The translations under genes and the position numbers were made by a program. The notes under the pieces are model-generated. The model was not told where the DNA came from. It was given only the letters and a program-made list of their open reading frames with translations, and made no database searches. From positions 234,974-298,973 of the forward strand of contig JAAEQC010000102.1 of NCBI GenBank assembly GCA_024231905.1: a DNA stretch of 64,000 nucleotides, given 5' to 3'. Below are positions 9,008-57,653 of this stretch, one piece after another. The DNA is from a bacterium (GTDB taxonomy: Bacteria; Krumholzibacteriota; Krumholzibacteriia; LZORAL124-64-63). Within the stretch, counting starts at the first letter, position 1, and every line of letters starts with the position of its first letter.

Positions 9008-9451
9008 ATGGACGTCATCCTGATGCAGAGCGTGGACAACCTGGGCGCCATGGGCGAGACCGTGGCCGTGGCCCGGGGCTACGCACGGAATTACCTGATC
9101 CCCCAGGGGCTGGCCGTGGAGGCCAGCGAGGGCTCCAAGAAGGTCGTCGAGGAGCACATGCGCCTCGAGGCCAAGCGCGACGGCGTGCGCAAGGCCGGCG
9201 CCGAGGTCCTGGCAGCCGGCATGGGCGAGCTCTCCTGCACCATCACCGTGCAGGCGGACGAAGAGGACAAGCTCTTCGGTTCCGTCACCGCCCGGGACAT
9301 CGCCGAGAACCTGAGCACCGACGCCGCGACCATCGAGCACCGCCAGGTGGAACTCGAGGAGCCCATCAAGCAGTTGGGCGTCTACACCGTGGACATCCGC
9401 CTGCACGCCGAGGTGGCCGTCCCGGCCAAGGTCTGGGTCGTCAAGACTTGA
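9008..9451 (+). CDS. rplI: 50S ribosomal protein L9
   Basis: MDVILMQSVDNLG..G..V.VA.GYARNYLIPQGLA is canonical L9. AAAAGGTGG RBS lies upstream; ATG 9008 is preferred over TTG 8999. Confidence 0.9.
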   Translation: MDVILMQSVDNLGAMGETVAVARGYARNYLIPQGLAVEASEGSKKVVEEHMRLEAKRDGVRKAGAEVLAAGMGELSCTITVQADEEDKLFGSVTARDIAENLSTDAATIEHRQVELEEPIKQLGVYTVDIRLHAEVAVPAKVWVVKT

Positions 9452-9464
9452 GCGGGGTGACGTC

Positions 9465-36593: not shown

Positions 36594-36624
36594 GCCCGCG
36601 GTTTTTCGTATGGTAGTTCGTAGA

Positions 36625-39108: not shown

Positions 39109-40100
39109 AGCGGATCCTGGGCTTCCTGGCCAAGAGCGTGGTGAGCGGCGGTCTCATCTGGTACCTGCTCGCGCAAAGGCTCTCCCTCGACGACGTCACC
39201 GACGCGGTGGCCTCTCCCCGCTGGGGTTGGCTGGTGGCAGCCATGGTGGTCTACGGCCTGTCGGCCTTCGGGGGCGCCCTGCAGTGGTCCTGGCTGCTGC
39301 GGACGGCGGGGATCCGCGCCGCCGGCAGCGAGATCCGCCGTCTCTACTTCATCGGGCTCTTCATCAATAATTTCCTGCCGGCCAACGTGGGCGGGGACGC
39401 CTGGAAGATTGTCGATCTGGGCCGCCAGGAACAGCGCTCCTTGGGGGTCTTCTGCGCCACGCTCCTGGACCGCCTGCTCGGGTTGACGGCCCTGACCCTG
39501 CTGGCGGTGCTGGTCCTGCTGGGCGCCAGCGGCATCGGCGTACCCTTGCCGCGGACCGCCCTGTGGCTCGTGGCGGCATTGGGATTGTTGGGGGGCGGAC
39601 TGGCATTCCTGCTGTCCCGGCGTCTGGGACGCCTGTTGCCGGCCACCGCCCTGCGCTTCGGCTGGCAGAAGGGCGCGGCACGGCTGGCCCGGATCACGGG
39701 CGAATTCTCCCGCTATCGGGAGCGGGTCGCCTGGCTGAACGGCATCCTGGCCTTCAGCGTCGGCGTCCAGTTCATGCGCATGGCCACCCACGTGCTGGTG
39801 GCCTGGGGACTGGGTTTCGAACTGACCTTCGAGCAGGTGGTGCAGCTCTTCGTGCTGGTCCCGTTGCTGGCCATCAGCCTCACCCTGCCCATCGCCATCA
39901 ACGGCATCGGCCTGCGCGAATCCGTGTCGGCGAACCTGCTCACCTGGGCGGGCCTGGCCGCGCCCCAGGCCGTGGCCATGGAAGTGGCCGCCTTCCTGGT
40001 CCAGGTGATCTTCAGCCTGCAGGGCGGCGTGTTGCTCTGGCTGGGCCGGTGGCGTCGTCGAGACCCCGTAGCAGAGGAGTCGCGGAACTCCGCCGGGTGA
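39105..40100 (+). CDS. Flippase-like / lysylphosphatidylglycerol-synthase-TM-region-like membrane protein (UPF0104)
   Basis: Polytopic, roughly 8 TM helices, with motif FINNFLPANVGGDAWKI. GTG overlaps the GT4 stop (GTGA). The upstream part of ORF 37890..40100 is rejected as an alternate-frame run-on. Confidence 0.6.
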   Translation: MKRILGFLAKSVVSGGLIWYLLAQRLSLDDVTDAVASPRWGWLVAAMVVYGLSAFGGALQWSWLLRTAGIRAAGSEIRRLYFIGLFINNFLPANVGGDAWKIVDLGRQEQRSLGVFCATLLDRLLGLTALTLLAVLVLLGASGIGVPLPRTALWLVAALGLLGGGLAFLLSRRLGRLLPATALRFGWQKGAARLARITGEFSRYRERVAWLNGILAFSVGVQFMRMATHVLVAWGLGFELTFEQVVQLFVLVPLLAISLTLPIAINGIGLRESVSANLLTWAGLAAPQAVAMEVAAFLVQVIFSLQGGVLLWLGRWRRRDPVAEESRNSAG

Positions 40101-40181
40101 TTGTTGTTGCCCGGGAGGCCGTGTGTTAGCTTGGGCCGGTCCGAGGCCCTTTGGAGTCATCAGAGAGACGATCCGGGTACC

Positions 40182-42932
40182 ATGGAACCGCTGTTGAACC
40201 GGCTGCGCCGGCCCCACATCCTCATCGCCGCCGGCGTCTTCGCCCTCACCTTGGGCGTGTACGTCACCACTCTCGGACCCACCATGGAGTTCTGGGACTG
40301 TGGCGAATTCATCACCACCAGCCACATCGTCGGCATCCCGCACCAGCCGGGTACGCCCATGTACGTGCTCATGGGGCGCGTCTTCGACGTGATCTTCGGC
40401 AGTCCACAGATCGACGAACCCGCCTTCCGCACCGCCTGGGCCCTGAACTTCATGTCGGCCTTCTTCAGCGCGTTGGCGGTGACCTTCGTCTTCCTGCTCA
40501 TCCGCGACCTGGCCCGGCGGGCCGACCCGGACGTCAAGTGGCTGCCCGAACTGGGCGGCGTGGTGGGCGCCCTTTTTCTGGCCTTCAGCCAGACCTACTG
40601 GAACAACGCCATCGAGGCGGAGGTGTACGGCCTGTCGGCCTTCATGCTGGCGGTGCTCTCCTGGCTGGCCGTGCGCTGGTACGACCACCGAGACCACGAT
40701 TCCAGCAACCACCTGCTCTTCCTTATGATCTACTTGCTGGGCCTGGGCGTGGGCTTCCACCTGGGCAGCGTGCTGGTCTATCCCGGCGTCTTCCTCATGG
40801 TGCTGCTGGCCAGCCGCCGCCAGTTGCCGGTCCTGGACCTCTTCCTCATGAGCGCCGGCCTGTTCGTTTTCCTGCTCTCGACCACGACCCGGGACAACGG
40901 CCTGGTCCTGCTGCTGCTCCTGGCGTACGCGGTGGTCGTGGGCGTGCGCGCCATGCAGGGCCATCGCTTCGCCCTGGTGGGCAGCGCCCTGTTCTTCGTG
41001 GGTCTGACCGTGCACGTCATGATGCTCGTGCGCGCTGGCGCCAACCCGGAGCCCCTGATCAACCAGACCGATCCGGACAACTTCGCCGCTCTCATGACCG
41101 TGATCCGGCGCGAGCAGTACCCGCCCCTGAACCCTTTCCAGCGGCAGGCGGACCTGGGCTGGCAGTACGGCTACTACTACGGCTTCCTGTTCAAGCAATT
41201 CTACTTCCTGGGCCCGGGCCACGGCCTGCTGACCGTGGTGACGACGGTGCTGGGTCCCATCTTCCTGGCCCTGGTGGGGCTCTTCCACGGGGTGCGGCGT
41301 CTCTTCCCGCTGGTGCTGATCCCCCTGGCCGGCTACCTCTTCAACGGCGAGATCCTCACCCTCTACCTGAATTTCACAGACCACGAAGTGCGCGAGCGCG
41401 ACTACTTCTATTTCGCGGCTTTCCTGTTCATGGCGGTCTTCATCGGACTGGGTGCCGCGGCGCTCATGCGCTACGCCCAGGGCGGGGAGGGCAAGAGCGC
41501 GGACCAGGTTGAGCGGGACGACGCCGACTGGCGCCGGGTGGTGCGCGCGACTCCCAGGTGGTCCGTATGGCTGGTTGCCGGAGTGCTGTTGGTAGCGGCG
41601 TTGCTACCCATAGCGCCGGGTAGCGTCAAGTACTGGGAGCACGACCGCTCCGAGAACCATCTGGCCTACGACTACGCCTGGAACATCCTGGCCGGGCTGG
41701 ACGAGAACGCCATCATCTTCACCAACGGGGACAACGACACCTTCCCCATCTGGTATCTGCAGATGGTGGAGAAATTCCGTACGGACGTGACGGTGGTGAA
41801 CCTCTCCCTGGTGAACCTGCCCTGGTACATCAAACAGCTCCGCTACCATCACGGCCTCGAGTTTTCCCGCACGGACGAAGAGGTGGACCGCCTGCGCCAC
41901 CGCATGTTCGAGGACCCGGAAACCGGGCAACGCGAACTGGTCATGATCAAGGACTACGTCGTACACGACATCATCACCACCAACCTGAGCCAGGTCGGAC
42001 GGCCCCTCTTCTTCGCTGTGACCATCCCGCAGGACAACATGAAGCGCTACTTCGCCAACCTGCGCATGGAGGGCATGGCCTACCGGCTGGTGCGGGAGAC
42101 CGCCCCGGACAACCTGCCCACCACCAACGCCGATAAGGTCATGGAGAACATGCTGGGCGTGTACCGGCTGGATTCGGTGCAGTCCGGCGATTCCGAAGAG
42201 CGCCAGCGCCGCTACGCCGCCATGGCCGGCCGTGCCTCCGACGACGGCACGATCATTCTGGGCCGGCCGGGCAAGCGGCTGAGCGCCGCGGACATGGCCG
42301 ACCTGGCCGCCGGTCTGGGCCAGCGCCGCCGGGACACCTTCCGCAGCATCAACGCCCGCCACCTGCTGGGCAACTATCCCACGGCATTCAACCGGGCGGG
42401 CTTCGACTTCATCCAGCAGTCCGAGCTGGTGGCCGAGACCGACTCGGTGGCCTACCGGGAATTGCTGGCCAAGGCGGCGACGGCCTTCGAGGCGAGTCTG
42501 GCCTTGGAGCCGTTCAACGACCACGCCATGGACTTCTACCCCCTGTTGCTGGTGCAGCTCTATCGGGACGACGACGCCCGCGACTTCCTGATCTCCCTGC
42601 GCGGCAACGTGGACGAGGCGCTGGAGGAGCAGATCATCTTCCGCACCTTCCAGGGACTGATCCAGGGCGGGTTGTCGCCCATCGCCCTGGGCTGGGCCCG
42701 CCAGTGGCGGCAGGACGATCCCGGGCGGGGTTTCTATTACATGCTCGAGTTCCGTCTCTACGAAGCCATGGACGAGCTGGCGGCCGCCAGTGCTATCGCC
42801 GACGAGTGGGCGACCGTGGACGGCGCACGCAACGCAGAGATGGACCGGTCCCTGGCCGAGATGCAGCAGCGGGCTCGGGCGCGGGATCTGGAGAACGTAC
42901 CGGCAACCGGCGGAGGCACTGATGGACAGTAG
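40182..42932 (+). CDS. DUF2723-family GT-C fold membrane glycosyltransferase (protein-O-mannosyltransferase-like / TMEM260-like) with a C-terminal helical repeat domain
   Basis: N-terminal polytopic region with the conserved FWDCGEFITTSHIVGIPHQPGTPMY segment and about 11 TM helices, followed by a large soluble C-terminal domain. Start placed at MEPLL (40182). Confidence 0.65.
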   Translation: MEPLLNRLRRPHILIAAGVFALTLGVYVTTLGPTMEFWDCGEFITTSHIVGIPHQPGTPMYVLMGRVFDVIFGSPQIDEPAFRTAWALNFMSAFFSALAVTFVFLLIRDLARRADPDVKWLPELGGVVGALFLAFSQTYWNNAIEAEVYGLSAFMLAVLSWLAVRWYDHRDHDSSNHLLFLMIYLLGLGVGFHLGSVLVYPGVFLMVLLASRRQLPVLDLFLMSAGLFVFLLSTTTRDNGLVLLLLLAYAVVVGVRAMQGHRFALVGSALFFVGLTVHVMMLVRAGANPEPLINQTDPDNFAALMTVIRREQYPPLNPFQRQADLGWQYGYYYGFLFKQFYFLGPGHGLLTVVTTVLGPIFLALVGLFHGVRRLFPLVLIPLAGYLFNGEILTLYLNFTDHEVRERDYFYFAAFLFMAVFIGLGAAALMRYAQGGEGKSADQVERDDADWRRVVRATPRWSVWLVAGVLLVAALLPIAPGSVKYWEHDRSENHLAYDYAWNILAGLDENAIIFTNGDNDTFPIWYLQMVEKFRTDVTVVNLSLVNLPWYIKQLRYHHGLEFSRTDEEVDRLRHRMFEDPETGQRELVMIKDYVVHDIITTNLSQVGRPLFFAVTIPQDNMKRYFANLRMEGMAYRLVRETAPDNLPTTNADKVMENMLGVYRLDSVQSGDSEERQRRYAAMAGRASDDGTIILGRPGKRLSAADMADLAAGLGQRRRDTFRSINARHLLGNYPTAFNRAGFDFIQQSELVAETDSVAYRELLAKAATAFEASLALEPFNDHAMDFYPLLLVQLYRDDDARDFLISLRGNVDEALEEQIIFRTFQGLIQGGLSPIALGWARQWRQDDPGRGFYYMLEFRLYEAMDELAAASAIADEWATVDGARNAEMDRSLAEMQQRARARDLENVPATGGGTDGQ

Positions 42933-43968
42933 GGAACGGACGGAGATCGTCGCTGGGCTGCCCGACACGGTGCGGCGGATCCTGGCCCCGGGGACGCCGG
43001 TGGTGGTCACCGGTTGCGCCGGCTTCATCGGCAGTTCCCTGACCGAGGTCCTGCTGGAGGCGGGTTGTGCGGTCACGGGGGTCGACTGCCTCACCGACTA
43101 CTACGACCCGGCCCAGAAACTCGAGCACATGGCCGGTTTCGCCGACCATCCGGACTTTACCTTCGTGCGCAAGGACCTGAACGACCTGGATGCCGAGGAA
43201 CTCCTGCGCGGCAAACGCGCCGTCTTCCACCTGGCCGCCCAGGCCGGGGTGCGCGCCAGCTGGGGCCGGACCTTCGACGACTACGTGGCCTTCAACATCA
43301 CCGCCACCCAGCGCCTGCTCGAGGCCTGCAAGGCACCGGATGTGGCCGCCGACCTGGTGCGCTTCGTCTACTCGAGCAGCAGCTCCGTCTACGGCGATCA
43401 GCCGGAATTGCCGGTCACGGAGAAGGCGCTGCCCCAGCCGCGCTCCCCCTACGGCGTGACCAAGATGGCCGCCGAGCACCTGAGCGTGCTCTACGCCATG
43501 AACTACGGCGTGCCCACCAGCAGCCTGCGCTACTTCACGGTCTACGGTCCCCGCCAGAGGCCGGACATGGCCTTCCGCAAGTACATCGAGGCGGCCCTGG
43601 ACGGCCGCGTCTTCCAGGTGTACGGCGACGGTGGCCAGACCCGCGACTTCACCTACGTGGGCGACGCCGTGCGCTCCAACCTCCTGGCCGTGGCCTGCGA
43701 CGAGCCTTGGGGGGTCTTCAACACCGGCGGCGGCAGCCGGGTGGCCTTCGGCGAAACCCTGGACCTGCTGCAGGAGATCCTGCGCGAGCGCGTGCCGGGT
43801 CTGGAAGCTACCGTCGAATACACCGAGACCGCCCGTGGCGACGTCCGCGACACCTTCGCCGACCGGGCCCACGTGGAAGCGGCCATCGGCTACAAGCCCA
43901 CCGTGGGTATGGCCGAGGGTCTGGCCCGCGAAGTGGACTGGGCCATGGCCAGGAGGCGTCAGGCATGA
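42922..43968 (+). CDS. NAD-dependent nucleotide-sugar epimerase/dehydratase (SDR family)
   Basis: Rossmann motif VVVTGCAGFIGSSL and catalytic YGVTK (YxxxK). Overlaps the upstream stop by 11 nt. Confidence 0.8.
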   Translation: MDSRERTEIVAGLPDTVRRILAPGTPVVVTGCAGFIGSSLTEVLLEAGCAVTGVDCLTDYYDPAQKLEHMAGFADHPDFTFVRKDLNDLDAEELLRGKRAVFHLAAQAGVRASWGRTFDDYVAFNITATQRLLEACKAPDVAADLVRFVYSSSSSVYGDQPELPVTEKALPQPRSPYGVTKMAAEHLSVLYAMNYGVPTSSLRYFTVYGPRQRPDMAFRKYIEAALDGRVFQVYGDGGQTRDFTYVGDAVRSNLLAVACDEPWGVFNTGGGSRVAFGETLDLLQEILRERVPGLEATVEYTETARGDVRDTFADRAHVEAAIGYKPTVGMAEGLAREVDWAMARRRQA

Positions 43969-44915
43969 GCGAGGGCGCAGGAAACACCGTACGCAGCGAC
44001 ATCGCCGTGGTGGTGCCCGCCTTCGACGAAGCCGAGTCCCTGCCCGAACTGGTGGAGCGCATCGCCGCGGCCATCGACGCCATGGGCCGGACCTGGGAGG
44101 TGTGGATCGTCGACGACGGTTCCGCTGACGGGACCTTCGCCGTGGTGGAGCGCTTGGCCCAGGATCGTCCGCAGGTCCACGGCCTCAGCTTCGGTCGCAA
44201 CTTCGGCAAGGCGGCGGCCCTGGCCGCGGGCTTCGAGGCCGCGTCGGCTGAACTCGTCGTCACCATGGACGCCGACCTCCAGGACGACCCGGCGGAGATC
44301 CCCCACCTGGTGGCCAAGCTGGAGGAGGGCTGGGACCTGGTCTCCGGCTGGAAGCAGGACCGCCAGGACAGTTTCATCAAGAACAACACCAGCAAGATCT
44401 TCAACTGGTTCACCAGCCGCATGTGCGGGCTCAAGCTCCACGACTTCAACTGCGGCCTGAAGATCTATCGCCGCCAGGTGACTGAACGGGTCAAGCTGTA
44501 CGGCGAGATGCACCGCTACGTGCCGGCCCTGGCCCACCTGGACGGCTTCCGGGTAGCCGAACTGCCGGTGAGGCACGCGGCCCGCAAGTACGGCTCCACC
44601 AAGTACGGCATGGCCCGCTTCATTAACGGTTTCCTGGATCTGCTGACGGTGTATTTCCTGCACGCGCGCCGCACCTCGCCCCTGCATTTCTTCGGGCGCG
44701 GAGGCATGACCTTCCTGGGTGCCGGCGGGGCGATCAGTCTCTATTTCCTGGCCTGGTGGCTCATGGGCCACGGCCTGCGCGTGCGTCCGGTCCTCGTGCT
44801 CGGACTGGTGTTCATCATCGTGGGTTTCCAGTTCATCAGCCTGGGCCTCATCGCCGAACTGGTGGTATCCGGGCGCCATCCCGAAACCGCCTACCGCATA
44901 GCCCGGCGTGTCTGA
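43965..44915 (+). CDS. GT2 polyprenol-phosphate glycosyltransferase (GtrB/ArnC/CsbB-like, membrane-anchored)
   Basis: VVVPAFDEAESL...VDDGSADGT...DADLQDDP are DXD motifs. Two C-terminal TM helices. ATGA overlap with the epimerase; AGGAGG RBS. Confidence 0.8.
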   Translation: MSEGAGNTVRSDIAVVVPAFDEAESLPELVERIAAAIDAMGRTWEVWIVDDGSADGTFAVVERLAQDRPQVHGLSFGRNFGKAAALAAGFEAASAELVVTMDADLQDDPAEIPHLVAKLEEGWDLVSGWKQDRQDSFIKNNTSKIFNWFTSRMCGLKLHDFNCGLKIYRRQVTERVKLYGEMHRYVPALAHLDGFRVAELPVRHAARKYGSTKYGMARFINGFLDLLTVYFLHARRTSPLHFFGRGGMTFLGAGGAISLYFLAWWLMGHGLRVRPVLVLGLVFIIVGFQFISLGLIAELVVSGRHPETAYRIARRV

Positions 44916-45840
44916 ACGGCGCTGCATCCCCGACCGCCGCCAGGGTTTGCCCCCCCTGGTGGCCCTGGTCGTCAACTGGAATGGACGCGACGTCCTGCCC
45001 GAATGCCTGGCCTCCCTCCAGGACGGAGGCTATCCCGGTCTCAGGGTGCTGGTGGTGGACAACGGCTCCGTCGACGACTCGGTGGCCTGGACCCGCGAAC
45101 ACCACCCGGAATGCGAGATTCTCGAGACCGGCCGCAACCTGCGCTGGGCCGGCGGCAACAACGCGGGACTCCGTTACCTGGCTGATGGGGGATACGAGGG
45201 CCACGTCCTGCTCCTGAACAATGACACGGTAGTCCCCGAGGGTAGCCTGCGGCGCCTGGTGGTGGCCCTGGACGCCAACGAGGAGGCCTGGGCGGCCACA
45301 CCACGCATCTGCTACGCCCACGACCCGGCCAGGGCCTGGTACGACGGCGGCACTGTGGGCCGGTGGAGCGGCTGGGTGCGCCATGCGGGGATCCGCAAAT
45401 TGACGGGCAAGCTGCGCATGGAAGAACGCTACGTGGACTGGGGGACCGGCTGCGCCCTGCTGCTGTCCCCGGGGGCCCTGGACGCAGTGGGCGAGTTGGA
45501 CGAGGAGTTCCACTTCTACGGCGAGGACACGGACTACTCCCTGCGCATCACCGCGGCCGGGGGCCGCATCCTGCACGTGCCGCGCTCCCTGGTCCTGCAC
45601 AAGGTGAGCGCCTCGGTGGGCGGGACCACTCCCCTGAAGCTGTGGCTGCGTAGCCGCAGCCATTTGCGCCTGCTGCGCAAGCACTGGCCCGCGCGCAGTT
45701 GGCCCGTGCTGATTCCCCTGCAGGTGGGCTACCTGGCGGGCCACGCGGGCTGGCAATTGTGGCACGGCCGGCCCGAGGCGGCCTGGGCTGTGTGGCAGGG
45801 GGTCCTGGACGAATTGAGGGGCCGGCCCTACGTGGGCTGA
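44908..45840 (+). CDS. Glycosyltransferase family 2
   Basis: LVALVVNWNGRDVL...VVDNGSVDDS...FYGEDTDYSLR is a GT2 rhamnosyltransferase-like fold. GTG start overlaps the upstream stop. Confidence 0.7.
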   Translation: MSERRCIPDRRQGLPPLVALVVNWNGRDVLPECLASLQDGGYPGLRVLVVDNGSVDDSVAWTREHHPECEILETGRNLRWAGGNNAGLRYLADGGYEGHVLLLNNDTVVPEGSLRRLVVALDANEEAWAATPRICYAHDPARAWYDGGTVGRWSGWVRHAGIRKLTGKLRMEERYVDWGTGCALLLSPGALDAVGELDEEFHFYGEDTDYSLRITAAGGRILHVPRSLVLHKVSASVGGTTPLKLWLRSRSHLRLLRKHWPARSWPVLIPLQVGYLAGHAGWQLWHGRPEAAWAVWQGVLDELRGRPYVG

Positions 45841-45895
45841 GGTTTACAGGTGCGCGCCGTCAGTGGTATCATGGTAGCTGAACAACGACAATGAC

Positions 45896-48532
45896 TTGAG
45901 CGCAATGGCGGCGCCTTCCGGGCGGCGTCCGTCGCGCCGTTGCGGATTCTGCCCGGGGGTGGATCCGGAACTTGCCCGCCGGGAGATCTCTTTGGCCAAA
46001 CGCCGCACGGACCAGGAGCGCAGCACCGCCGCGAAACCGGCGGTGCCAGCGTCCCAGTCGCCCAGGCTCCGTACCTGGCTCCTGGTGACGGGCGCCCTCC
46101 TGCTGACCCTGCTCCTGCTCTATCCCGGGGCCGCGTTCCGCGGCGAGATCTTTGGCAGCAGCGACGCGGCCAACTCCGACGCCTTCCGCCTGGCCGGCGA
46201 CCGGTCCCTGGCCGAGGGCTCATACCCCTTGTGGAATCCCTACCTCTTCGCGGGCATGCCCACCTTCGGCTCCCTGTCCTACGTACGATTCCTGTATCCG
46301 CCTTCCATCCTGCTGATGCTCCTGCAGGAAAGCCTGGGATTCCCGCCGTTGACCTGGCTGCTGGCCCACCTGCTCTTTGGCGGCCTGGGCATGGCCTGGT
46401 TCCTGTCCCGCTGGCGGTTGCCGGTGGCTACCCTCGTTCTGGGCGGCGTACTGTGGCTGTTGCTGCCCAAGGTCGTGGCTTGGGGCGTCCACGGTCACGG
46501 CACCAAACTCGGCGCTGCCATGTACCTGCCCTGGATCGTGGGCTGGGCCTGGCGGGTCCTGGACGGTGGCGGCGCCCGGGCGGTGGGCATGACGGGGCTC
46601 CTGCTGGGCCTGCAACTGCTACGGGGCCACGTGCAAATCACCTACTACACCCTGCTGCTGGTGGGGTGGCTGGCCGTGTGGAACGGCCTGTGGCCCCTGG
46701 AGGCGGCGGTCCGCGCCAGGATGGCCGTCCGCTGGCGGCGCTGCGCCATGCTGGGGGGCGGTCTGGCTCTGGGCTTCCTGGTGGGCGCCCTGCTGCTGGT
46801 GCCCGTCCACGGCTACGCGGACCTGTCCATCCGCGGCCAGGATACCTCCGGCGGCGGGGGTGTGGGCATGGACTACGCCACGGGCTGGTCCCTGGCCCCG
46901 GCGGAACTGGGCACCTTCGTGCTGCCGGCGGCGGCGGGCTTCGGGCAGGCCACCTACATGGGCCTCATGCCGTTCACCGACTACCCCAACTATCTTGGCA
47001 TCCTGTTGCTCGCATTGGCGGCCGCCGGTTGGTGGCGCGGCGACCGCAGCCTGACCGTGGCCCTGGCCGTGGCGGCGCTGCTGGCGGTGTTCGTTTCCTT
47101 CGGACGGTACGGCTTCGGTTTCTATGAACTGCTCTACCGCCTGTTGCCCTACTTCAACAAGTTCCGCATCCCGTCGATGATCCTGGTGCTCACGGGATTC
47201 GTGGCCATCGTGCTGGCGGCGCGCGGGGTCGCGGCCTGGCGCGAGGGGACGACGCCCTGGAACCGTCCAGTGGTGCTGCCGGCGGTCCTGGGCCTGGCGG
47301 GGGTGGCCCTGCTCCTGGCGGGAGCTGCGGAATTGGCCAAGGGGACCTACGCCTCCGGTCTGGAGTCCCTGGCCGCCAGGGCTGGCCGTACGGCGGTCCC
47401 GGTGCTTCTGGACACGGCGTGGGATCTGCACAAGGCCAGCCTGGTACGCATCGGCCTGATTCTCATGGCCGCCGCCTCGGCCTTGTTCTACTCCACGCGC
47501 TCGGAGGCCTTCCGCCGCGGCGGTCTGGCCTGGGTGCTGCTCGGATTGCTGGCGGTGGATCTGGCGGGCGTCGATCGCCTCGTGATCCACCCGGAAAAGG
47601 GACTGTCCACGGTGGTCGCCGACGGCTCCGGCGGCGGGCGCCTGGTATCCGCGACCAAGCTCACGGGGCTGCCGACGCGCCAGTCCGCTGAGAGTTCCCC
47701 CTTGGCCCGGACCCTGCTCGCCGAGACGGGCCACGACCGCGTGTGGCCCCTGGGACGGCAGAGCGGCATGAACACCTGGATGGCCGACGGCGTGCATTCC
47801 CTGGGCGGCTACCACCCGGCCAAGCTTGCGGGCTACGAGCAGATCCGCCGCCGCCTCTTCGGCGCCGAGCCCGCCGGCCGCCTGGCCAACTGGCTGGGGG
47901 CACGCGTGGTGGCCTGGGAGGGGACCCTCTCCCCGGCGGACCTGGACTTTCTGGACGCCACGGGCCTGGACCTGGAACGCGCCTCCCGCGGCGACGGCCG
48001 CACAGCCTTGCACCGCAACCGCGCCGCCCTGCCGCGGGCGCGTCTCGTGACCGCCTGGCGCAGGGCATCCGCGTTGCCGGAAGGGGACGCCCTGGAGCCG
48101 TTCCTGGACGCGATCCAGGCCGGCCGCCTGGACGTGACATCCACCGTGACCCTGGACCGGGAGCCCGTGCCGGCCCCCGGCGAGACCGCGAATCCCTTGC
48201 CGGCGGTGGAGTTCCTGACCGACGGCCTCAACGAGGTCGTCCTGGAAACGACGGCCCCGGTCCCGGCCCTGCTCTTGCTTGCGGACATGATGGCTCCTGG
48301 TTGGCGCGTCGAGGTGGACGGCCGCCCGGCCGAGCTGCTGACGGCCGACCTGGTGCTGCGGGCGGTGGCCCTGGAGGCCGGCCGCCACACGGTGCGCTTC
48401 CATTACAGCGACCCGTCGGTGCGGACGGGCCTCCTGCTCAGTCTGACCGGACTCCTGGGAGTCGCGGTCCTGATCCTGTTCCCCTTCCTGCGCCGCCGGC
48501 TGGCGGCGTCCCCGGGTGGCGACCATGAGTGA
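45896..48532 (+). CDS. YfhO-family GT-C membrane glycosyltransferase
   Basis: About 13 TM helices followed by a large extracytoplasmic C-terminal domain, consistent with YfhO. TTG 45896; ATG 45905 is an alternative start. Confidence 0.65.
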   Translation: MSAMAAPSGRRPSRRCGFCPGVDPELARREISLAKRRTDQERSTAAKPAVPASQSPRLRTWLLVTGALLLTLLLLYPGAAFRGEIFGSSDAANSDAFRLAGDRSLAEGSYPLWNPYLFAGMPTFGSLSYVRFLYPPSILLMLLQESLGFPPLTWLLAHLLFGGLGMAWFLSRWRLPVATLVLGGVLWLLLPKVVAWGVHGHGTKLGAAMYLPWIVGWAWRVLDGGGARAVGMTGLLLGLQLLRGHVQITYYTLLLVGWLAVWNGLWPLEAAVRARMAVRWRRCAMLGGGLALGFLVGALLLVPVHGYADLSIRGQDTSGGGGVGMDYATGWSLAPAELGTFVLPAAAGFGQATYMGLMPFTDYPNYLGILLLALAAAGWWRGDRSLTVALAVAALLAVFVSFGRYGFGFYELLYRLLPYFNKFRIPSMILVLTGFVAIVLAARGVAAWREGTTPWNRPVVLPAVLGLAGVALLLAGAAELAKGTYASGLESLAARAGRTAVPVLLDTAWDLHKASLVRIGLILMAAASALFYSTRSEAFRRGGLAWVLLGLLAVDLAGVDRLVIHPEKGLSTVVADGSGGGRLVSATKLTGLPTRQSAESSPLARTLLAETGHDRVWPLGRQSGMNTWMADGVHSLGGYHPAKLAGYEQIRRRLFGAEPAGRLANWLGARVVAWEGTLSPADLDFLDATGLDLERASRGDGRTALHRNRAALPRARLVTAWRRASALPEGDALEPFLDAIQAGRLDVTSTVTLDREPVPAPGETANPLPAVEFLTDGLNEVVLETTAPVPALLLLADMMAPGWRVEVDGRPAELLTADLVLRAVALEAGRHTVRFHYSDPSVRTGLLLSLTGLLGVAVLILFPFLRRRLAASPGGDHE

Positions 48533-49250
48533 GCGTGTGGTGAACAAGGCCGTGGTGATCGTTCCGACCTACAACGAGGCGGAGAACGTGGGCCGCCTGC
48601 TGCCGGCCATCCTCGAGCGGGACGAGCGGCTGTCGGTGCTCGTGGTGGACGACAACTCCCCGGACGGCACGGCGGACGTGGTCAAGGCCCTGCCCGGGTT
48701 CGGCGACCGGATCATGATCCTCGAACGGCCCTGCAAGGCGGGCCTGGGCGCCGCCTACATCGCCGGCTTCCAGTGGGTGCTGGCCAATACGGAGGCCGAC
48801 GCCGTCTTCGAGATGGACGCGGACTTCAGCCACGCCCCCGACGCCCTGGACGAGTTTCTGGTGGAGATCGAAACCCACGACCTGGTCCTGGGCAGCCGCT
48901 ATCTGGGCGGCATCACCGTGGTGAACTGGCCCCTGTCCCGCCTCTTCCTCTCGGTGGGTGCGAACCTCTACGCCCGCGTCGTCACCGGCATGCCCATCCG
49001 CGATTGCACCGGCGGCTTCAAATGTTTCCGCCGCACGACCCTCGAACAACTCCCCCTGGGGGAGATCAAGAGCGACGGCTATTCCTTCCAGATCGAACTC
49101 AATTACCACTGCTGGCGCCGGGGGCTGACCATCAAGGAGATCCCCATCATCTTCACGGACCGTGTGGTGGGCGTCTCCAAGATGTCGCGCCGCATCATCG
49201 CCGAGGCCATGTGGATGGTGTGGGCCCTGCGCCTGAGGCGAATCCCTTGA
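48525..49250 (+). CDS. Polyprenol-monophosphomannose synthase-like GT2 (Ppm1/DPM1-like, soluble)
   Basis: VVIVPTYNEAENV...VVDDNSPDGT...EMDADFSHAP...GSRY is a DPM1-like catalytic domain without a TM anchor. Overlaps the YfhO stop by 8 nt. Confidence 0.8.
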   Translation: MSERVVNKAVVIVPTYNEAENVGRLLPAILERDERLSVLVVDDNSPDGTADVVKALPGFGDRIMILERPCKAGLGAAYIAGFQWVLANTEADAVFEMDADFSHAPDALDEFLVEIETHDLVLGSRYLGGITVVNWPLSRLFLSVGANLYARVVTGMPIRDCTGGFKCFRRTTLEQLPLGEIKSDGYSFQIELNYHCWRRGLTIKEIPIIFTDRVVGVSKMSRRIIAEAMWMVWALRLRRIP

Positions 49251-49270: not shown

Positions 49271-51382
49271 GTGAAGCTGGCCGTGGTCATCGTCCACTAC
49301 AACACGAGCGACGACCTGGCCCGCTGTCTGGAATCCCTGAACGCCTACGGGCCGCCGGACGACTTCCGGATCGTGGTGGTGGACAACGCCTCCCGCGACG
49401 AGGGCCTGGCCGAGGTGCACCGCCGCTTCCCCGACTGTGAGTGGATCTTCAACGCGGACAACCAGGGCTACTCCCGCGGCTGCAACCGGGGCCTCGCCGC
49501 AGTGGAGGCCGAGTACTACCTGCTGCTCAACCCGGACGTGGTGGTCAAGCCCGGGGCCCTGGCCCGCCTGCTGGAATTCGCCGACGCCCACCCGCGGGCG
49601 GGCATCATCGGTCCCCAGTTGTTGAACGAGGACGGCACCATCCAGCATTCGTGCCGGCGCTTCTACACCTTCTGGACCCTGGTCCTGCGCCGCACCTTCC
49701 TGGGCAGGCTCTTCCCGGACAGCCGGCCGGTCCGGCGCCATCTCATGCAGGACTTCGACCACCGCTCGGCCCGTCCGGTGGACTGGCTCCTGGGCGGCTG
49801 CCTGCTTGTGCGCCGCAGCGCCGTCGATCGTACCGGCCCCATGGACGAGCGTTTCTTCCTCTACTTCGAGGACGTGGACTGGTGCTACCGCATGTGGCGC
49901 GCGGGCTGCGAGGTTCTCTACACCCCCGACGCGCGCTTCGTCCACCGACACAGGCGTTCCAGCGCCCAGGGCGCCACGAGCCGTTCCTTCTGGTTGCATC
50001 TGGGCTCCCTCATCTCCTTCTACGAGAAGTGGGGCGCGCTGGTGTGGCTGTTCAAGAAGTGGCGGGATCCCCTGCTGCTGTTCGTCATGTGGCTGCTGGA
50101 CATGACCGGCCTGGCGGCAGCCTTCGGACTGGCCTACGGGCTGCGAAATCTGGGGCACGACCTCTTCCCCGAGCAACTCTACCCCTTCGCCGAGTACCGG
50201 CCCCTGCTCCTGTTCGGGCTACTGCTGGCGACCCTCACCTTCGTCCTGGCGGGACGCTACCGCGGCGAGCATCTGCGCCGGCGGCGATCCGTGGTTGAAC
50301 ACCTGCAACAGACGGGCATCGTGGCGGTGCTCATGCTGGCCAGCACGTACCTGGGACACCTGGAGGTGGTCAGCCGGGCGGTGCTCCTGATGTTCGTGCC
50401 GCTGCTGGTGGTTTTCACGGCCCTGGGGGACGGTCTGGTGCGGCGCGTGCTGCGGCGGCTGGAACGCGGACACCTCTCCCTGGAACGCACGCTGCTGGTG
50501 GGACCGGCAGCGGTCTGGCGCACCTGGCTCGACCGGGCCGGGGACCTGGCGGCCCAGGGGGTCGACGTGGCCGGCTTCGTGGACGATCCGGGCGCCCTGG
50601 AATCGTTGCCGCCCCTGGCGGGTGGCACGGTGCCCTGGCTGGGCCGCCCGGCCGAGGCCGCGGACGTGGCCGAGCGGTACCGCATATCCCAGGTAGTGTT
50701 CCGGGATCTGCCGCCGCCGGGCGATCCCCTGTGGACGGCCGTGGGTGCCCTGCGCCGCATGCGAGTCCGCCTGCGCTGGCAGGGGGACGGCGTGTGGCTC
50801 CTGGCGGCTGCCACGCGCATGGAAGTCTTCGGAGGCGGGCTGAGCGCAGTTCAGGGCCAGGCGGGACGGCGAGCGGCCGGAGCCCTGGGGCGCCGTTTGT
50901 GCGGCGCGGTGGCGGGACTGCTGCTGGGCGTGGCGGCAGCGCTGCCCTGGGCCTGGTTGCGGCTGGTGGATGTTCGGCAAGGGCGTGCGCGGATCGACCG
51001 TGTGACCGCCTGGGACCGCTGGCGCGGGGGCACGCCCCTGGTACTCGCCTTGGCCACCGACGGCCAGGTGAAAGGTCTGGTCTGGCAGTGGCCGCTGGCC
51101 TGGTCCCTCCTGACCGGACGGGTGGCCATGTGGGGCGAACAAGCCCGGGCGGACGGGCCGCCGCCTCCGCCGCCGACCACCGGGGACCTCATGGATTTCT
51201 GGCGCGCCGAACCGGCGCCGCCGGGTTTGACGGGCGCCTGGGCGGCAGCCGGGGGAGGCGGCCGGCTGCGGGCGATCTGCGCTCGCCTGTGGCGCGATCC
51301 GGGCGGATTCGGTAACGTCGCGGAAACAGTACGAGCTAGGGAAGTCGTCGAGAAGGACCCTCCGGGCACCGAGGTGGAATGA
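49271..51382 (+). CDS. Fusion protein: N-terminal GT2 glycosyltransferase plus C-terminal multi-TM and CoA-binding-like module resembling the non-catalytic N-terminal half of WcaJ-type sugar transferases
   Basis: GT2 motifs (VVIVHYNTSDD, VVVDNASRDEG, FYFEDVDWCYR). Then 4-5 TM helices and LLVGPAAVWRTWLDRAGDLAAQGVDVAGFVDD...RISQVVF. No Bac_transf catalytic domain. GTG 49271; TTG 49247 is an alternative start. Confidence 0.65.
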   Translation: MKLAVVIVHYNTSDDLARCLESLNAYGPPDDFRIVVVDNASRDEGLAEVHRRFPDCEWIFNADNQGYSRGCNRGLAAVEAEYYLLLNPDVVVKPGALARLLEFADAHPRAGIIGPQLLNEDGTIQHSCRRFYTFWTLVLRRTFLGRLFPDSRPVRRHLMQDFDHRSARPVDWLLGGCLLVRRSAVDRTGPMDERFFLYFEDVDWCYRMWRAGCEVLYTPDARFVHRHRRSSAQGATSRSFWLHLGSLISFYEKWGALVWLFKKWRDPLLLFVMWLLDMTGLAAAFGLAYGLRNLGHDLFPEQLYPFAEYRPLLLFGLLLATLTFVLAGRYRGEHLRRRRSVVEHLQQTGIVAVLMLASTYLGHLEVVSRAVLLMFVPLLVVFTALGDGLVRRVLRRLERGHLSLERTLLVGPAAVWRTWLDRAGDLAAQGVDVAGFVDDPGALESLPPLAGGTVPWLGRPAEAADVAERYRISQVVFRDLPPPGDPLWTAVGALRRMRVRLRWQGDGVWLLAAATRMEVFGGGLSAVQGQAGRRAAGALGRRLCGAVAGLLLGVAAALPWAWLRLVDVRQGRARIDRVTAWDRWRGGTPLVLALATDGQVKGLVWQWPLAWSLLTGRVAMWGEQARADGPPPPPPTTGDLMDFWRAEPAPPGLTGAWAAAGGGGRLRAICARLWRDPGGFGNVAETVRAREVVEKDPPGTEVE

Positions 51383-53787
51383 GCATGCGGCACACAGGAA
51401 GCGGAAGACTCATGACGGCCTGCGCCCTGGCGTTGCTGGCGGTGGCGGCCGCCACGGCGGCAGCGGCGCCCGTATTCGAGCCCCTGACCCGGGCCCGCGA
51501 AGTAAGCACCCTGCTCGAACTGGACGGAAAGGTCTTCGGGGGCACGGGCGACGGCGGCGTGTTCGTATGGGACGCCGACGATCCCGGGCAGTTCGAACGC
51601 TGGACCGCCGGCACCCAACTGGGCAGCGCCCGGGTAGTGGATCTGGCCTGGACCGGACGCTACCTGTGGGTCGCCACCGACGACGGCGGCCTGACCCGGG
51701 TGGAGGACCCGGCCTCGGACGCACCGTCTTTCCGGCAGATCGGCTCGACCATGTCCACCTTCGCCACCACCGCCGTGGCCGGTCTATTGCGGGGCGACCA
51801 GGAACGGGTCTGGTACGGTCTGGGTGACGGCGGTCTGGGGGAGATCACCGACGGCTTCGACGGTTCGGTTTATACCACCAGCGACGGTCTGGTCAGCGAC
51901 ACGATCCGGGCGCTCCACATCCACGACGGTGAACTGTGGATCGGAACGCCCGCCGGCATCTCCCGTTTCGCCGACGGGGTCTTCCACGACGCCACCGCCG
52001 GCCTGGCCGGCCTGAACACCCGCGTCTTCGTCACCGACACCGCCGGCGATCTCTTCGCCGCCGGCAGCGGCGGTGTCCATCGCTGGGACTCCTCCGGGGA
52101 GGCCTGGGTATCCCTGGGCGGTATCGGCCGTACAGTGGTCGGCCTGGCGGTGGTGGCCGACGATCTCTACGCGCTGGGCGCCTACGCCGGCGGAACGGCG
52201 ACCCTGCACCGGTGGAACGGCACCGGATTCGACGACCTGGCTCTGCCCGAGCCCCGGACCCTGGCCACCGGCGGCGGCACGGCGGTCTGGCTGGGCGGCC
52301 GGATCGACGAACCCGGCATGCAGGTGAACCGTTCGGGACTGGCCTTCTACGCACGTCTGGACGCGGGCGGCGCGACCACGGTCTGGCAGCCGGCCCTGAC
52401 CCTGCCCGCCAACTGCGCGGGGGTGACTTTCGGCGCCGACGGCCGCCCGTGGCTCGGCTCCCGCTGGGGCGAGGCCTTCTCCGGTCGCCGGGATGACGGT
52501 ACCTGGGAAAACATCTACGAGATAGCCACGGTGGCCAACGACTCCTCCGGTCTCATCAACCAGATCGCACCCATTCTGGCCATGGCCACCGGCGCCGATG
52601 GCGTGGTCTGGGTGCCCCAGACCGGCTCCGGCGTGCTACGCCACGATCCGGCCACGGGCCGAACCGACCAGATCCGCCCCTTCAACAGCGGCCTGTCAGG
52701 GAATTCGCTGATCGGCGCCGTGGGGCATCCGGACGGCCCGGTTCTTTTCCTGCACGACTGGCTGGACACGGACGACAAGGTGGACGTGCTGGTGGACCCG
52801 GTCCACTGGCGCAATCCGGCGAACTGGCTCAGCCTGCCCCTGGGATCGGGCGGCCTGGGCGACGGTCCCAACGTATGGGACGCCCACGTGGCGCGGCGCG
52901 ACCAGATCTGGTTCGCTGTGGAGGGCACGGGTCTGGTGCGCTGGGACGTCAACGGCCTGAGCGCCGGACCCGACGATCCGCTGACCTGGCTCGATCAGTC
53001 CGACGACCACTGGACCGCACCCGTGAACGACTTCCCGAATACCTTCCTCGACCCGACCCAGGCGCGAGGCATCGACGACGGCCCAGGCGGTTCCCTGTGG
53101 GTGGGCGGCAACGGCGTGGTGCGCTTCCGCTACGACGGCGGCCTGATCACCACCCTGGACGACCTGGGCACGGCCGCCGGCGACGAGGGCGGCCTGAGCA
53201 ACAGCCGCGTGTACGACGTGGCCACCGACCGCCACGGGTACCTGTGGGTGGCGAACGCCTCGGGTCTGGACCGGGTCCGGCTCGGAGCGGGCGACCCTGT
53301 GGTGGACTCGTGGTTCGACGCCCTGACCTATGCCACGGACGGCGGCATCAACGGCCGCTACCTGTCCACCGCCATCGCCGACATGCCTGGCTCGAACTAC
53401 GACTTCGCGCGCCTGGCCCTGGATTCCGACCGCGGGCGCCTCCTGCACAGCGGCGACCGGGGTGTGTCCCTGGTCGACGTGGGCGGGCCGGTGGGTGCGG
53501 CGAGCGGCTCCGCATCGGCGCAACTCTATCCGAATCCCTGGCGCCCGGAACTGGGCGACGGTCTGCTCAGGATCGGCGGTCTGGGCGTGGAACCGGGGGA
53601 GACGGTCGAGGTGGGCATCTACACCGTCGAAGGCCAGCTGGTCTACCAGGATCCGACAGTGGCGCCGGACACGGGCTTCTGGCGAGGCGTCAACCGGGTG
53701 GGCAACCCGGTGGCGACGGGCCTGTACGTGGTGAAGGTGTCCTGGCGCGGAGAACACCTGATGCGGACCCTGGCGGTGGTCAGGTGA
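51379..53787 (+). CDS. Secreted beta-propeller (Reg_prop-like repeat) protein with a C-terminal T9SS-type / FlgD-Ig-like sorting domain
   Basis: Signal peptide (LALLAVAAATAAAAP). Repeated GG..R.D..G.LW.G. propeller-blade motifs. C-terminal roughly 90 aa LYPNPWRPELGDG...GLYVVKVSWRGEHLMRTLAVVR matches the Por/T9SS C-terminal-domain pattern. ATGA overlap upstream. Confidence 0.65.
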   Translation: MSMRHTGSGRLMTACALALLAVAAATAAAAPVFEPLTRAREVSTLLELDGKVFGGTGDGGVFVWDADDPGQFERWTAGTQLGSARVVDLAWTGRYLWVATDDGGLTRVEDPASDAPSFRQIGSTMSTFATTAVAGLLRGDQERVWYGLGDGGLGEITDGFDGSVYTTSDGLVSDTIRALHIHDGELWIGTPAGISRFADGVFHDATAGLAGLNTRVFVTDTAGDLFAAGSGGVHRWDSSGEAWVSLGGIGRTVVGLAVVADDLYALGAYAGGTATLHRWNGTGFDDLALPEPRTLATGGGTAVWLGGRIDEPGMQVNRSGLAFYARLDAGGATTVWQPALTLPANCAGVTFGADGRPWLGSRWGEAFSGRRDDGTWENIYEIATVANDSSGLINQIAPILAMATGADGVVWVPQTGSGVLRHDPATGRTDQIRPFNSGLSGNSLIGAVGHPDGPVLFLHDWLDTDDKVDVLVDPVHWRNPANWLSLPLGSGGLGDGPNVWDAHVARRDQIWFAVEGTGLVRWDVNGLSAGPDDPLTWLDQSDDHWTAPVNDFPNTFLDPTQARGIDDGPGGSLWVGGNGVVRFRYDGGLITTLDDLGTAAGDEGGLSNSRVYDVATDRHGYLWVANASGLDRVRLGAGDPVVDSWFDALTYATDGGINGRYLSTAIADMPGSNYDFARLALDSDRGRLLHSGDRGVSLVDVGGPVGAASGSASAQLYPNPWRPELGDGLLRIGGLGVEPGETVEVGIYTVEGQLVYQDPTVAPDTGFWRGVNRVGNPVATGLYVVKVSWRGEHLMRTLAVVR

Positions 53788-57611: not shown

Positions 57612-57653
57612 TAGGCCTCTAATTCCCCTTTTTCGCACCTGCCTGTTTTTTTT
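57604..57653 (+). terminator. Palindromic hairpin AGGCCT-gat-AGGCCT followed 27 nt later by a T8 run; weak terminator candidate after the glycosylation operon
   Basis: The inverted repeat and the T tract are seen directly. Their geometry is non-canonical, so confidence is low. Confidence 0.2.

Follow-up and report, generated by a model that had tools for sequence, protein, structure and literature searches.

We examined a 64,000-nucleotide stretch of DNA from an uncultured member of the Krumholzibacteriota (the window; GenBank assembly GCA_024231905.1, contig JAAEQC010000102.1, forward strand, positions 234,974 to 298,973) and focus here on two adjoining + strand genes in it, ORF1 and ORF2. 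ORF1 (45992..48532, 846 aa) encodes a predicted YfhO-like membrane glycosyltransferase of the C fold type (GT-C), an assignment drawn from an AlphaFold2 model and profile alignments. ORF2 (48525..49250, 241 aa) encodes a predicted DPM1/Ppm1-type polyprenyl-phosphate mannose (hexose) synthase of glycosyltransferase family 2 (GT2), as indicated by Pfam, by alignment to Pyrococcus furiosus DPMS (PfDPMS) and by Foldseek. Judged from sequence throughout, the pair appears to be a YfhO-type GT-C hard-wired to a eukaryote-like DPM1-type synthase. This genome is far from alone in keeping YfhO-like and DPM1-like genes tightly coupled.

The G+C content of the window is ~70%, so open reading frames (ORFs) by themselves are weak evidence for genes. 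A screen of third-position GC content (GC3) gave 0.89 for the + frame at 45878-48532 (stop to stop) and 0.91 for that at 48474-49250, and database proteins 100% identical to ORF1 (P0001, 846 aa) and ORF2 (P0121, 241 aa) are on record. Together these results exclude a high-GC artefact for either ORF and agree with a preliminary description of this DNA, which had placed two genes here. Homologs of ORF1 and ORF2 number in the hundreds, at E = 0 or ~1e-125, and the organism names that they carry indicate Candidatus Krumholzibacteriota. The gene names in the preliminary description (a YfhO-family GT-C and a soluble Ppm1/DPM1-like polyprenol-phosphate-mannose synthase) match existing public annotation (P0001, 'MAG: YfhO family protein [bacterium]'; P0121, 'MAG: polyprenol monophosphomannose synthase [bacterium]'), and its logic follows a known scheme.

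ORF1 starts at TTG 45992 and stops at TGA 48530-48532. We place the start there because the identical NCBI protein has 846 residues and because 40 homologs share an 'MAK...' N-terminal consensus. The pair had been given the span 45896-49250, of which the gene ends and ORF2 stand; the ORF1 start had to be moved, as position 45896 is merely the first TTG in the longest ORF. With the start at 45992, a 151-nt gap lies behind the upstream GT2 gene. ORF2 starts at ATG 48525, and the 8-nt overlap described earlier is confirmed: the ORF2 start is laid over the ORF1 stop in the sequence ATGAGTGA (48525..48532, + strand), which is consistent with translational coupling of ORF1 and ORF2.

The AlphaFold2 model of ORF1, built with 40 homologs, has a mean pLDDT (predicted local distance difference test score) of 87.9 and a pTM (predicted template-modelling score) of 0.87. 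In the model, an N-terminal multi-helix membrane domain ends at about residue 532 and is followed by a non-membrane domain of ~270 residues (~539-805), made of an alpha/beta part and a beta-sandwich, and by a last transmembrane helix (808-837). Structural comparison of the model gives the membrane domain a GT-C fold, in keeping with the preliminary description, which had named a failure of structure prediction to find that fold as grounds for withdrawing the assignment. The first transmembrane helix spans residues 26-43, and Asp58 sits 15 residues beyond it in the first loop. An alignment of 43 ORF1-family sequences (22-57% identity) has 24 invariant columns, Asp58 among them. The catalytic acidic residue of GT-C enzymes usually lies in the first extracytoplasmic loop, and the position of Asp58 fits that conserved residue, making it a putative catalytic residue. 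The N-terminus and the C-terminal tail are rich in Lys/Arg, a distribution that should leave the Asp58 loop and the 270-residue domain facing the periplasm.

A sequence search with ORF1 against all PDB chains gave no match at E <= 10. By fold, ORF1 matches AftD (18.2) and PglB (17.7) about equally, so that fold likeness does not tell users of monophosphate-linked donors from users of diphosphate-linked donors. AftD is otherwise a distant relative, with 13-15% identity to ORF1, a length of ~1,300-1,400 aa and decaprenyl-phosphate-arabinose as its donor.

The YfhO assignment of ORF1 is transitive, because the Pfam model PF09586 (YfhO) alone falls short and touches only the C-terminus. The model scores 25.6-25.7 bits, under its gathering threshold of 28.5, and the match is confined to ORF1 residues 768-817, aligned with the final 50 positions of the model. 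NCBIfam gives a similar picture, its PgfM1 and PgfM2 matches of ~18 bits being limited to the ORF1 C-terminus. Among ten diverse members of the ORF1 family, PF09586 matches the C-terminal 55-135 residues only, five of the ten above threshold, and the N-terminal 540-560 residues of five members (the first 540 in the case of ORF1) gave no Pfam family at E <= 10 and no GT-C family. PF09586 matches 38 of the 43 aligned members; three of the 43 also match GT-C_AftD and two match PTPS_related, both GT-C families. Two distant ORF1 relatives that adjoin DPM1-like genes in metagenomes do pass PF09586 within its membrane domain: L110 (56.2 bits, model positions 76-385) and L122 (33.2 bits, model positions 96-379). 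An hhalign comparison of the ORF1 family profile with L110 gave a probability of 100% and an E-value of 1.3e-61 over 739 columns, establishing full-length homology, membrane domain included, to a PF09586-passing protein. The architecture of ORF1 (~13 helices, the last two of them separated by a large extracytoplasmic region) agrees with that of Bacillus subtilis YfhO, for which 13 transmembrane helices are predicted, with a 389-residue loop ahead of the last one. On this profile evidence, we place ORF1 in the YfhO superfamily as a divergent GT-C, one that is poorly covered by the Pfam model; the YfhO-family label given earlier holds by way of this chain of homology, and not through PF09586 itself. 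The ORF1 family is large: a search with its profile collected 51,686 cluster representatives when the limit was E <= 0.001 and still 3,299 when it was E <= 1e-30. Pfam covers the catalytic membrane domain of this family poorly.

ORF2 matches the Pfam GT2 family PF00535 at 93.6 bits and carries the DAD motif. Its nearest solved relative by sequence is PfDPMS (5mlz; E 2.5e-23 over residues 8-234); ArnC is matched at ~1e-6 and GtrB not at all. Foldseek with the ORF2 model (pLDDT 80.2) also ranked 5mlz first, at 29% identity, then ArnC and then GtrB at 17-23%. PfDPMS, ArnC and GtrB are the three polyprenyl-phosphate GT2 enzymes with solved structures, and of these ORF2 is nearest, by sequence as well as by fold, to the mannose synthase.

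We compared signature residues through the ORF2-5mlz alignment, in PfDPMS numbering, taking residue roles from the PfDPMS structure paper. The residues that contact the nucleotide and guanine, Y10, D39, G68 and L69, are all present in ORF2, with R63 behind the loop. Its MDADFSH motif aligns with 89-DADLQH-94 of PfDPMS, so that D89, D91 and H94 are kept, and it retains the lipid-phosphate triad R117, R131 and S135, conserved in bona fide synthases according to the same paper, together with the A-loop residues R202 and K208 and with E12. The triad, R202 and K208 are invariant in 32 close homologs of ORF2. The PfDPMS metal ligand Gln93 is Ser in ORF2, and Phe177 is Tyr. All donor, metal, acceptor-phosphate and A-loop residues checked are kept save Gln93, and the earlier reading of ORF2 as a Ppm1/DPM1-like GT2 stands. 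Set against a human DPM1 sequence, a comparison useful as a lead only, ORF2 shows 38% identity, the same Gln93 and Phe177 substitutions, and DADxSH and GY-FQ motifs.

ORF2 has no transmembrane segment (highest 19-residue Kyte-Doolittle average, 1.24). Its amphipathic interface helices (~137-154 and 222-237) correspond to those by which the catalytic domain of P. furiosus DPMS stays attached to the membrane, and the chain ends with helix 222-237, the second of them; the alignment to PfDPMS extends to native residue 223, and the PfDPMS membrane domain begins at 230. ORF2 is in these respects a human-type (type II) DPM1, devoid of membrane helices and ending past the second interface helix. PfDPMS truncated of its membrane domain is fully active and 80% membrane-bound, and because this truncated enzyme still goes to the membrane, ORF2 is better called peripheral than soluble, the term used for it previously: the lack of a transmembrane segment is confirmed, and the two interface helices are kept.

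That ORF2 is a DPM1-type GT2 loading mannose onto polyprenyl phosphate is well supported, not proven, because it reaches no curated NCBIfam equivalog; the mannose of the preliminary description thus has the DPM1-type signature residues behind it and no curated model. ORF2 might instead act in the same way on a non-mannose hexose (e.g. glucose or a modified hexose), taken from a GDP- or UDP-sugar. The nearest NCBIfam models (AglJ, PpgS and a haloarchaeal hexose transferase) concern different sugars, all matched far under cutoff; PfDPMS shows about one quarter of its activity with GDP-glucose; and the metal ligand Gln93 is one of the residues substituted. We nevertheless consider another sugar unlikely, given that the residues recognizing the axial 2-hydroxyl and guanine (D89, L69, G68, D39) are kept, with F177 as Tyr, and that a GDP-mannose pyrophosphorylase-like gene is encoded in the window. 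This mannose-1-phosphate guanylyltransferase-like gene (9315..10565, + strand; NTP_transferase and ManC_GMP_beta-helix), a possible source of GDP-mannose, sits amid ribosomal-protein genes ~36 kb upstream of ORF1/ORF2.

The linkage of the two genes was followed in 80 loci from one-genome-per-species collections, mostly Krumholzibacteriota. The scan used a close alignment (A1) because a diverse one (A2) had no stretch conserved enough. The ORF1-ORF2 order is repeated in two long contigs, and wherever a locus extends beyond the YfhO-like gene, a DPM1-like gene lies directly 3' of it. These DPM1-like neighbours are 61-83% identical to ORF2, even where the GT-C is down to 32% identity. Most junctions in related loci, measured with a rough start-site heuristic, are overlaps, of 8 nt in 20 loci, of 4 nt in 11 and of 1 nt in 4, or else gaps of <= 8 nt. 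A 14-gene operon, putatively for an envelope glycan, between nusB and mraZ is present in essentially every sampled Krumholzibacteriota genome; five apparent losses of its gene for a GT-C resembling human TMEM260 proved to be split-alignment artefacts, and that gene is present in all.

The coupling extends to other lineages. An Eisenbacteria contig carries a YfhO-like gene (31% identity), a DPM1-like gene (57%), a gene fusing a GT2/phosphoglycosyltransferase-like part to a beta-propeller, and a PglF-like gene. A metagenome search started from the DPM1-like protein fetched 80 loci, 38 of them with sufficient upstream sequence. A YfhO-like gene ends <= 400 nt upstream on the same strand in 13 of these 38 distant loci, and eight further loci, which end early on short contigs, share the arrangement. 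The DPM1-linked GT-Cs fall into two deep groups parted by unlinked clades in a rough neighbour-joining tree. Three metagenome loci (L129 12-1952, L132 3736-6045, L135 3861-6053) encode, ~1 kb upstream of the DPM1-like gene, membrane proteins of 650-770 aa that match PsaA/PsaB above threshold (32-35 bits) and may be type I reaction-centre-like.

The unlinked relatives of ORF1 keep varied company. Marinimicrobia clusters have a YfhO-like gene that follows a Wzx flippase gene and overlaps its end, together with an ArnC-like gene (46% identity) and with no DPM1-like gene nearby. The YfhO-like gene of L086 and L087 follows genes for a CDP-alcohol phosphatidyltransferase and sulfatases. In L170 (1771-9481), a YfhO-like GT-C and a family 4 glycosyltransferase (GT4) lie beside genes for a decaprenyl-phosphate phosphoribosyltransferase, DprE1, a DprE2-like short-chain dehydrogenase/reductase (SDR), a HAD phosphatase and GtrA, which by annotation make up a complete donor pathway of the decaprenyl-phosphate-arabinose type. 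Three kinds of monophosphate-linked sugar donor pathway thus occur near the ORF1 family, which fits a single-sugar GT-C whose donor depends on the lineage. P0381 (L168, L169, 1236-6160) is a stand-alone YfhO-like gene adjoining IF-2B/MtnA-like and amidohydrolase genes, a placement that recalls the reported Bacteroidales yfhO beside mtnN-luxS or sahH. Separately, a histidine-kinase-like gene (HATPase_c, ~390-416 aa) lies directly 3' of the YfhO-like gene in L083, L085, L086, L170 and L171, five loci spread over four separate branches of the rough family tree.

In the window, ORF1 and ORF2 lie within the 14-gene operon, a + strand run bounded by nusB (36624-37202) and mraZ (57795-58304). Genes 1-7 encode a methyltransferase, a GT4, an LPG_synthase_TM protein, a TMEM260-like GT-C, an SDR, an ArnC-like protein and a cytoplasmic GT2; genes 8-14 are ORF1, ORF2, and genes for a GT2/phosphoglycosyltransferase-half fusion, a propeller, a PglF-like dehydratase, a FemAB/GNAT-like protein and a Wzx/MurJ-like protein. 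The LPG_synthase_TM membrane protein (39105..40100, +; PF03706, 106.7 bits) resembles the MprF flippase domain and is a candidate flippase. The second GT-C of the operon (40101..42932, +; 943 aa) is TMEM260-like (DUF2723; PF11028, 154.9 bits) and matches the human TMEM260 structure 9rql at E 2.5e-14. The SDR (42925..43968, start approximate; +) appears most like UDP-glucuronic acid 4-epimerases, its best PDB matches being 6zl6 (E 7e-68; database label 'Epimerase domain-containing protein') and 6kv9 (E 8e-60; label 'MoeE5'). We take 6zl6 to be the Bacillus cereus UDP-glucuronate 4-epimerase and MoeE5 presumably to be such an epimerase too. The other predicted lipid-phosphate-sugar synthase, an ArnC/GtrB-type polyprenyl-phosphate glycosyltransferase (43965..44915, +; ArnC E 2e-59, GtrB 5e-29, and Pfam), has a C-terminal hydrophobic segment as its membrane anchor. 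Directly upstream of ORF1 lies the gene for a predicted cytoplasmic GT2, rhamnosyltransferase/GlfT1-like by Pfam and NCBIfam and without a transmembrane segment (44908..45840, +).

The TMEM260-like GT-C, the epimerase-like SDR and the ArnC-like synthase (40101-44915, +) look like a second lipid-sugar module, similar to the Rgt scheme by which Rhizobium handles galacturonic-acid-lipid. If its donor carries a uronic acid, this bacterial homolog of TMEM260 would merit attention by itself.

Downstream, the gene at 49271..51382 (+; start taken from the translation) encodes a fusion in which a GT2 is joined to the N-terminal half (membrane and CoA-binding-like) of a polyprenyl glycosylphosphotransferase. 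This gene invariably follows the DPM1-like gene; its Bac_transf catalytic part is without a match and looks degenerate, and a normal Bac_transf gene lies at 3-917 of the window. The fusion gene is invariably followed by one for a predicted secreted beta-propeller (51379..53787, +), which bears a signal peptide and, at its C-terminus, a type IX secretion domain (PorZ model, C-terminus only); the two are fused in Eisenbacteria (L084 13119-17282, 1,387 aa). The operon ends, just before mraZ, with a Wzx/MurJ-like flippase gene (56298..57630, end approximate; +), found by tblastn at 58% identity with an L001 gene that carries MurJ and Polysacc_synt matches. No DPM2, DPM3 or Ppm2-like anchor gene is evident. 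By annotation, the operon holds two distinct lipid-phosphate-sugar synthases and two distinct GT-Cs. We infer which synthase serves which GT-C, because ORF1 and ORF2 share the operon with the TMEM260-like GT-C and the ArnC-like synthase.

What the data show is the fold of either protein, the retention of catalytic residues, the topology in the membrane and the gene linkage kept across loci. Building on this, we lean, with slightly better than even confidence, toward a scheme in which ORF2 makes polyprenyl-phosphate-mannose, the lipid is flipped and ORF1 transfers the mannose in the periplasm. ORF1 and ORF2 would be co-translated via the 8-nt overlap. ORF2, as a peripheral-membrane GT2, would move mannose from GDP-mannose onto polyprenyl (undecaprenyl) phosphate at the cytoplasmic face of the inner membrane. 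The mannose-lipid would then be flipped, candidates for this step being the LPG_synthase_TM protein, the Wzx/MurJ-like protein or the GT-C ORF1 itself. ORF1, rather than the TMEM260-like GT-C, would consume the product, placing a single mannose on a periplasmic acceptor by means of the conserved Asp58 loop and the ~270-residue domain. The most likely acceptor would be the glycan that these 14 genes assemble, or else a protein that is secreted or belongs to the envelope.

Several observations weigh against this scheme. The second GT-C of the operon is TMEM260-like, and human TMEM260 is a protein O-mannosyltransferase that uses dolichyl-phosphate mannose. DPM1-like genes are found near TMEM260-like GT-Cs with tetratricopeptide repeat (TPR) domains in L103, L138, L149 and L160, so the mannose-lipid may have more than one GT-C as its user. 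Krumholzibacteriota inherit the operon as one block, TMEM260-like gene included, and adjacency there is therefore uninformative on who pairs with whom. PglB and STT3, which use diphosphate-linked oligosaccharides, resemble the fold of ORF1 nearly as closely as AftD does. The identity of the ORF2 sugar rests on sequence similarity, and ORF2 reaches no NCBIfam equivalog cutoff (best, AglJ at 56.1 bits against 325). No GtrA-type flippase gene was seen in the 14-gene operon, and no DPM1-like neighbour was found for the ORF1 relatives in Marinimicrobia, L086, L087, L168, L170 and L171.

The TMEM260-like gene raises the question of a crossed pairing, in which the ORF2 product would feed the TMEM260-like GT-C and the ArnC-like product would feed the YfhO-like GT-C, so that gene order would not reflect substrate flow. 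The analogies are DPM1 feeding TMEM260 in animals, where TMEM260 is the O-mannosyltransferase just mentioned, and CsbB or GtrB feeding YfhO in Firmicutes. The TMEM260-like genes of L103, L138, L160 and L149 lie 1-4 kb from the DPM1-like gene (adjoining in one case, L149), the Marinimicrobia clusters join a YfhO-like with an ArnC-like gene and have none of DPM1 type, and several DPM1-linked metagenome loci also have an ArnC-like gene upstream. Other loci speak for the order as it stands. In the Eisenbacteria contig, DPM1 still follows YfhO, and the 10 kb upstream contain neither a TMEM260-like nor an ArnC-like gene. Throughout the Krumholzibacteriota loci examined, adjacency or overlap joins YfhO to DPM1 and joins TMEM260 to the epimerase and the ArnC-like gene, and among the metagenome loci a YfhO-like gene neighbours the DPM1-like gene in 13/38, compared with ~4/80 loci fetched for a TMEM260-like gene. 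We regard a crossed pairing as quite unlikely. The preliminary description had called the ORF1/ORF2 pair a second, independent lipid-linked sugar pathway in the operon. The ArnC-like protein is indeed a second synthase; the independence of the two pathways is harder to maintain given the mixed pairings elsewhere (DPM1-like genes by TMEM260-like GT-Cs in metagenomes, YfhO-like with ArnC-like genes in Marinimicrobia).

The near-equal likeness to PglB bears on a further alternative, in which ORF1 would transfer a whole undecaprenyl-diphosphate-linked glycan, as an O-oligosaccharyltransferase, ligase or polymerase, and the ORF2 mannose-lipid would serve another enzyme, e.g. the TMEM260-like GT-C. 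The glycan would be built by the GT2, GT4, PglF-like, acetyltransferase and Wzx-like genes of the operon and passed to proteins or another acceptor. The operon does carry a full glycan-assembly set with a Wzx/MurJ-like flippase, and its phosphoglycosyltransferase-like domain looks degenerate, which tells against such a role. The Bacteroidota YfhO has been predicted as that phylum's missing O-oligosaccharyltransferase of general protein glycosylation (bioRxiv 10.64898/2026.07.27.740950), a claim that is itself a prediction, whereas all experimentally studied YfhO-family enzymes use a monophosphate-linked single sugar. The loci divide in the same way. The Marinimicrobia YfhO-like gene, overlapping the end of a Wzx gene with no DPM1-like gene nearby, and the stand-alone P0381, with its methyl-cycle-type neighbours reminiscent of the Bacteroidales locus, would suit transfer of a whole glycan; the survival of the YfhO-to-DPM1 coupling in lineages without the remaining operon, and the L170 family member beside a decaprenyl-phosphate-arabinose-type pathway and GtrA, would not. 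On balance, we give whole-glycan transfer a small chance of being correct, and retain transfer of a single mannose by ORF1 as the reading that we favour.

The scheme of ORF2 synthesis and ORF1 transfer resembles the multi-component transmembrane glycosylation systems of Gram-positive bacteria and the actinobacterial pathways of Ppm1 plus a GT-C. It differs from them in joining a YfhO-type GT-C to an anchor-less DPM1-type synthase, in having no GtrA, in its presumed diderm host and in forming part of a phylum-wide core operon. CsbB-YfhO(-GtcA) carries out GlcNAc glycosylation of teichoic acids in B. subtilis, Staphylococcus aureus and Listeria monocytogenes. Like ORF1/ORF2, CsbB-YfhO pairs, within one operon, a GT2 synthase of the lipid-phosphate-sugar class with a GT-C of the YfhO family. 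Numerous transmembrane helices and a large extracytoplasmic domain ahead of the last of them mark both GT-Cs, and transfer outside the cytoplasm, as in CsbB-YfhO, is predicted for ORF1. In contrast, synthases of the CsbB/GtrB type have two C-terminal helices and ORF2, of DPM1 type, has no membrane helices; the ORF1 operon has the GT-C first and is without GtrA/GtcA. Because the host is presumably diderm and devoid of teichoic acids, the acceptor must differ from that of CsbB-YfhO.

The YfhO family is not confined to teichoic acids, since in the streptococcal PgfS-PgfM1 and GtrB-PgtC2 systems YfhO-family GT-Cs put a single sugar from undecaprenyl phosphate on extracytoplasmic proteins, by O-glycosylating disordered regions rich in Ser/Thr. 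These systems use GalNAc or glucose and membrane-anchored GtrB-type synthases, unlike ORF2. On the synthase side, PfDPMS, human DPM1 and actinobacterial Ppm1 share with ORF2 the GT2 domain, the DAD motif, the Arg/Arg/Ser triad, the A-loop Arg and Lys and two interface helices, and human DPM1, which works with DPM2 and DPM3, likewise has no transmembrane helix. The product of actinomycete Ppm1 feeds extracytoplasmic GT-C enzymes (PMC5982138). Known partners of Ppm1/DPM1 are GT-Cs of the PMT, PimE or Mpt type, and the candidate partner of ORF2 is of the YfhO type.

Bacteroidota are related to the phylum of ORF1 through the FCB group; the NCBI taxonomy gives no superphylum for that phylum. Bacteroidota YfhO proteins resemble ORF1 in being PF09586-type with ~12 transmembrane helices, in belonging to a diderm lineage and in having an N-terminal GT-C module recognized by profile methods (bioRxiv 10.64898/2026.07.27.740950). 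They differ, in a comparison by description only, in that their yfhO genes stand alone by methyl-cycle genes and are not coupled to DPM1-like genes. The closest parallel in gene order comes from the figure legend of an exopolymer cluster in Pontiella (Kiritimatiellae), which lists 'yfhO' and, directly after it, 'upmt, undecaprenyl-phosphate mannosyltransferase (GT2)'; gmd and gtrA are close by. As far as the legend goes, a yfhO-mannosyltransferase pairing has therefore been drawn before; the Pontiella pair is an annotation from another phylum, compared with ORF1/ORF2 by gene names. Our literature search found no paper discussing the YfhO-DPM1 pairing.

What is known of glycosylation systems that combine a lipid-sugar synthase with a flippase and a GT-C comes chiefly from Firmicutes, Actinobacteria and Proteobacteria. 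If the ORF1/ORF2 pairing is functional, it would extend the YfhO family to mannose donors and diderm envelopes and would provide a bacterial mannose-lipid synthase without its own anchor. It would also give a comparative handle on the role of YfhO in a wider group that includes Bacteroidota, where YfhO is suspected to be the missing transferase of protein O-glycosylation.

A more speculative idea, which we think very unlikely, is that ORF1 and ORF2 form one physical complex in which the GT-C anchors the synthase, taking the part of DPM3 or Ppm2, and perhaps flips the mannose-lipid. Such a machine could carry out the O-mannosylation or O-glycosylation of proteins in Krumholzibacteriota, Eisenbacteria and phyla related to them. 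The deep conservation of the GT-C-then-synthase order with overlaps of 8, 4 or 1 nt is consistent with a complex, as are the anchor-less synthase and the GtrA-less operon. If a complex exists, one machine would make the mannose-lipid, bring it across the membrane and pass on its sugar in a channelled fashion, and the finding would bear on the O-glycosylation transferase still to be identified in Bacteroidota.

The 151-nt gap upstream of ORF1 contains a sigma-70-like promoter match (45843..45872, +; TTTACA, an 18-nt spacer and TATCAT, with TG ahead of the -10). In 19.8 kb there are two such matches, this one and 57675-57703 (+, before mraZ), and shuffled sequences give 1.0 +/- 1.0; both fall in the two sizeable intergenic gaps, and the consensus may not be that of the host. 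Because two against 1.0 +/- 1.0 expected is not significant, we keep the match at 45843 only as a hint of a promoter upstream of ORF1. An Rfam scan returned nothing within or near the ORF1/ORF2 pair. Elsewhere in the window, an FMN riboswitch (32274-32416, +; Rfam RF00050, 114.5 bits) heads a riboflavin gene run of ribD-like (32373-33644), ribBA-like (34024-35553) and lumazine synthase (35554-36039) genes.

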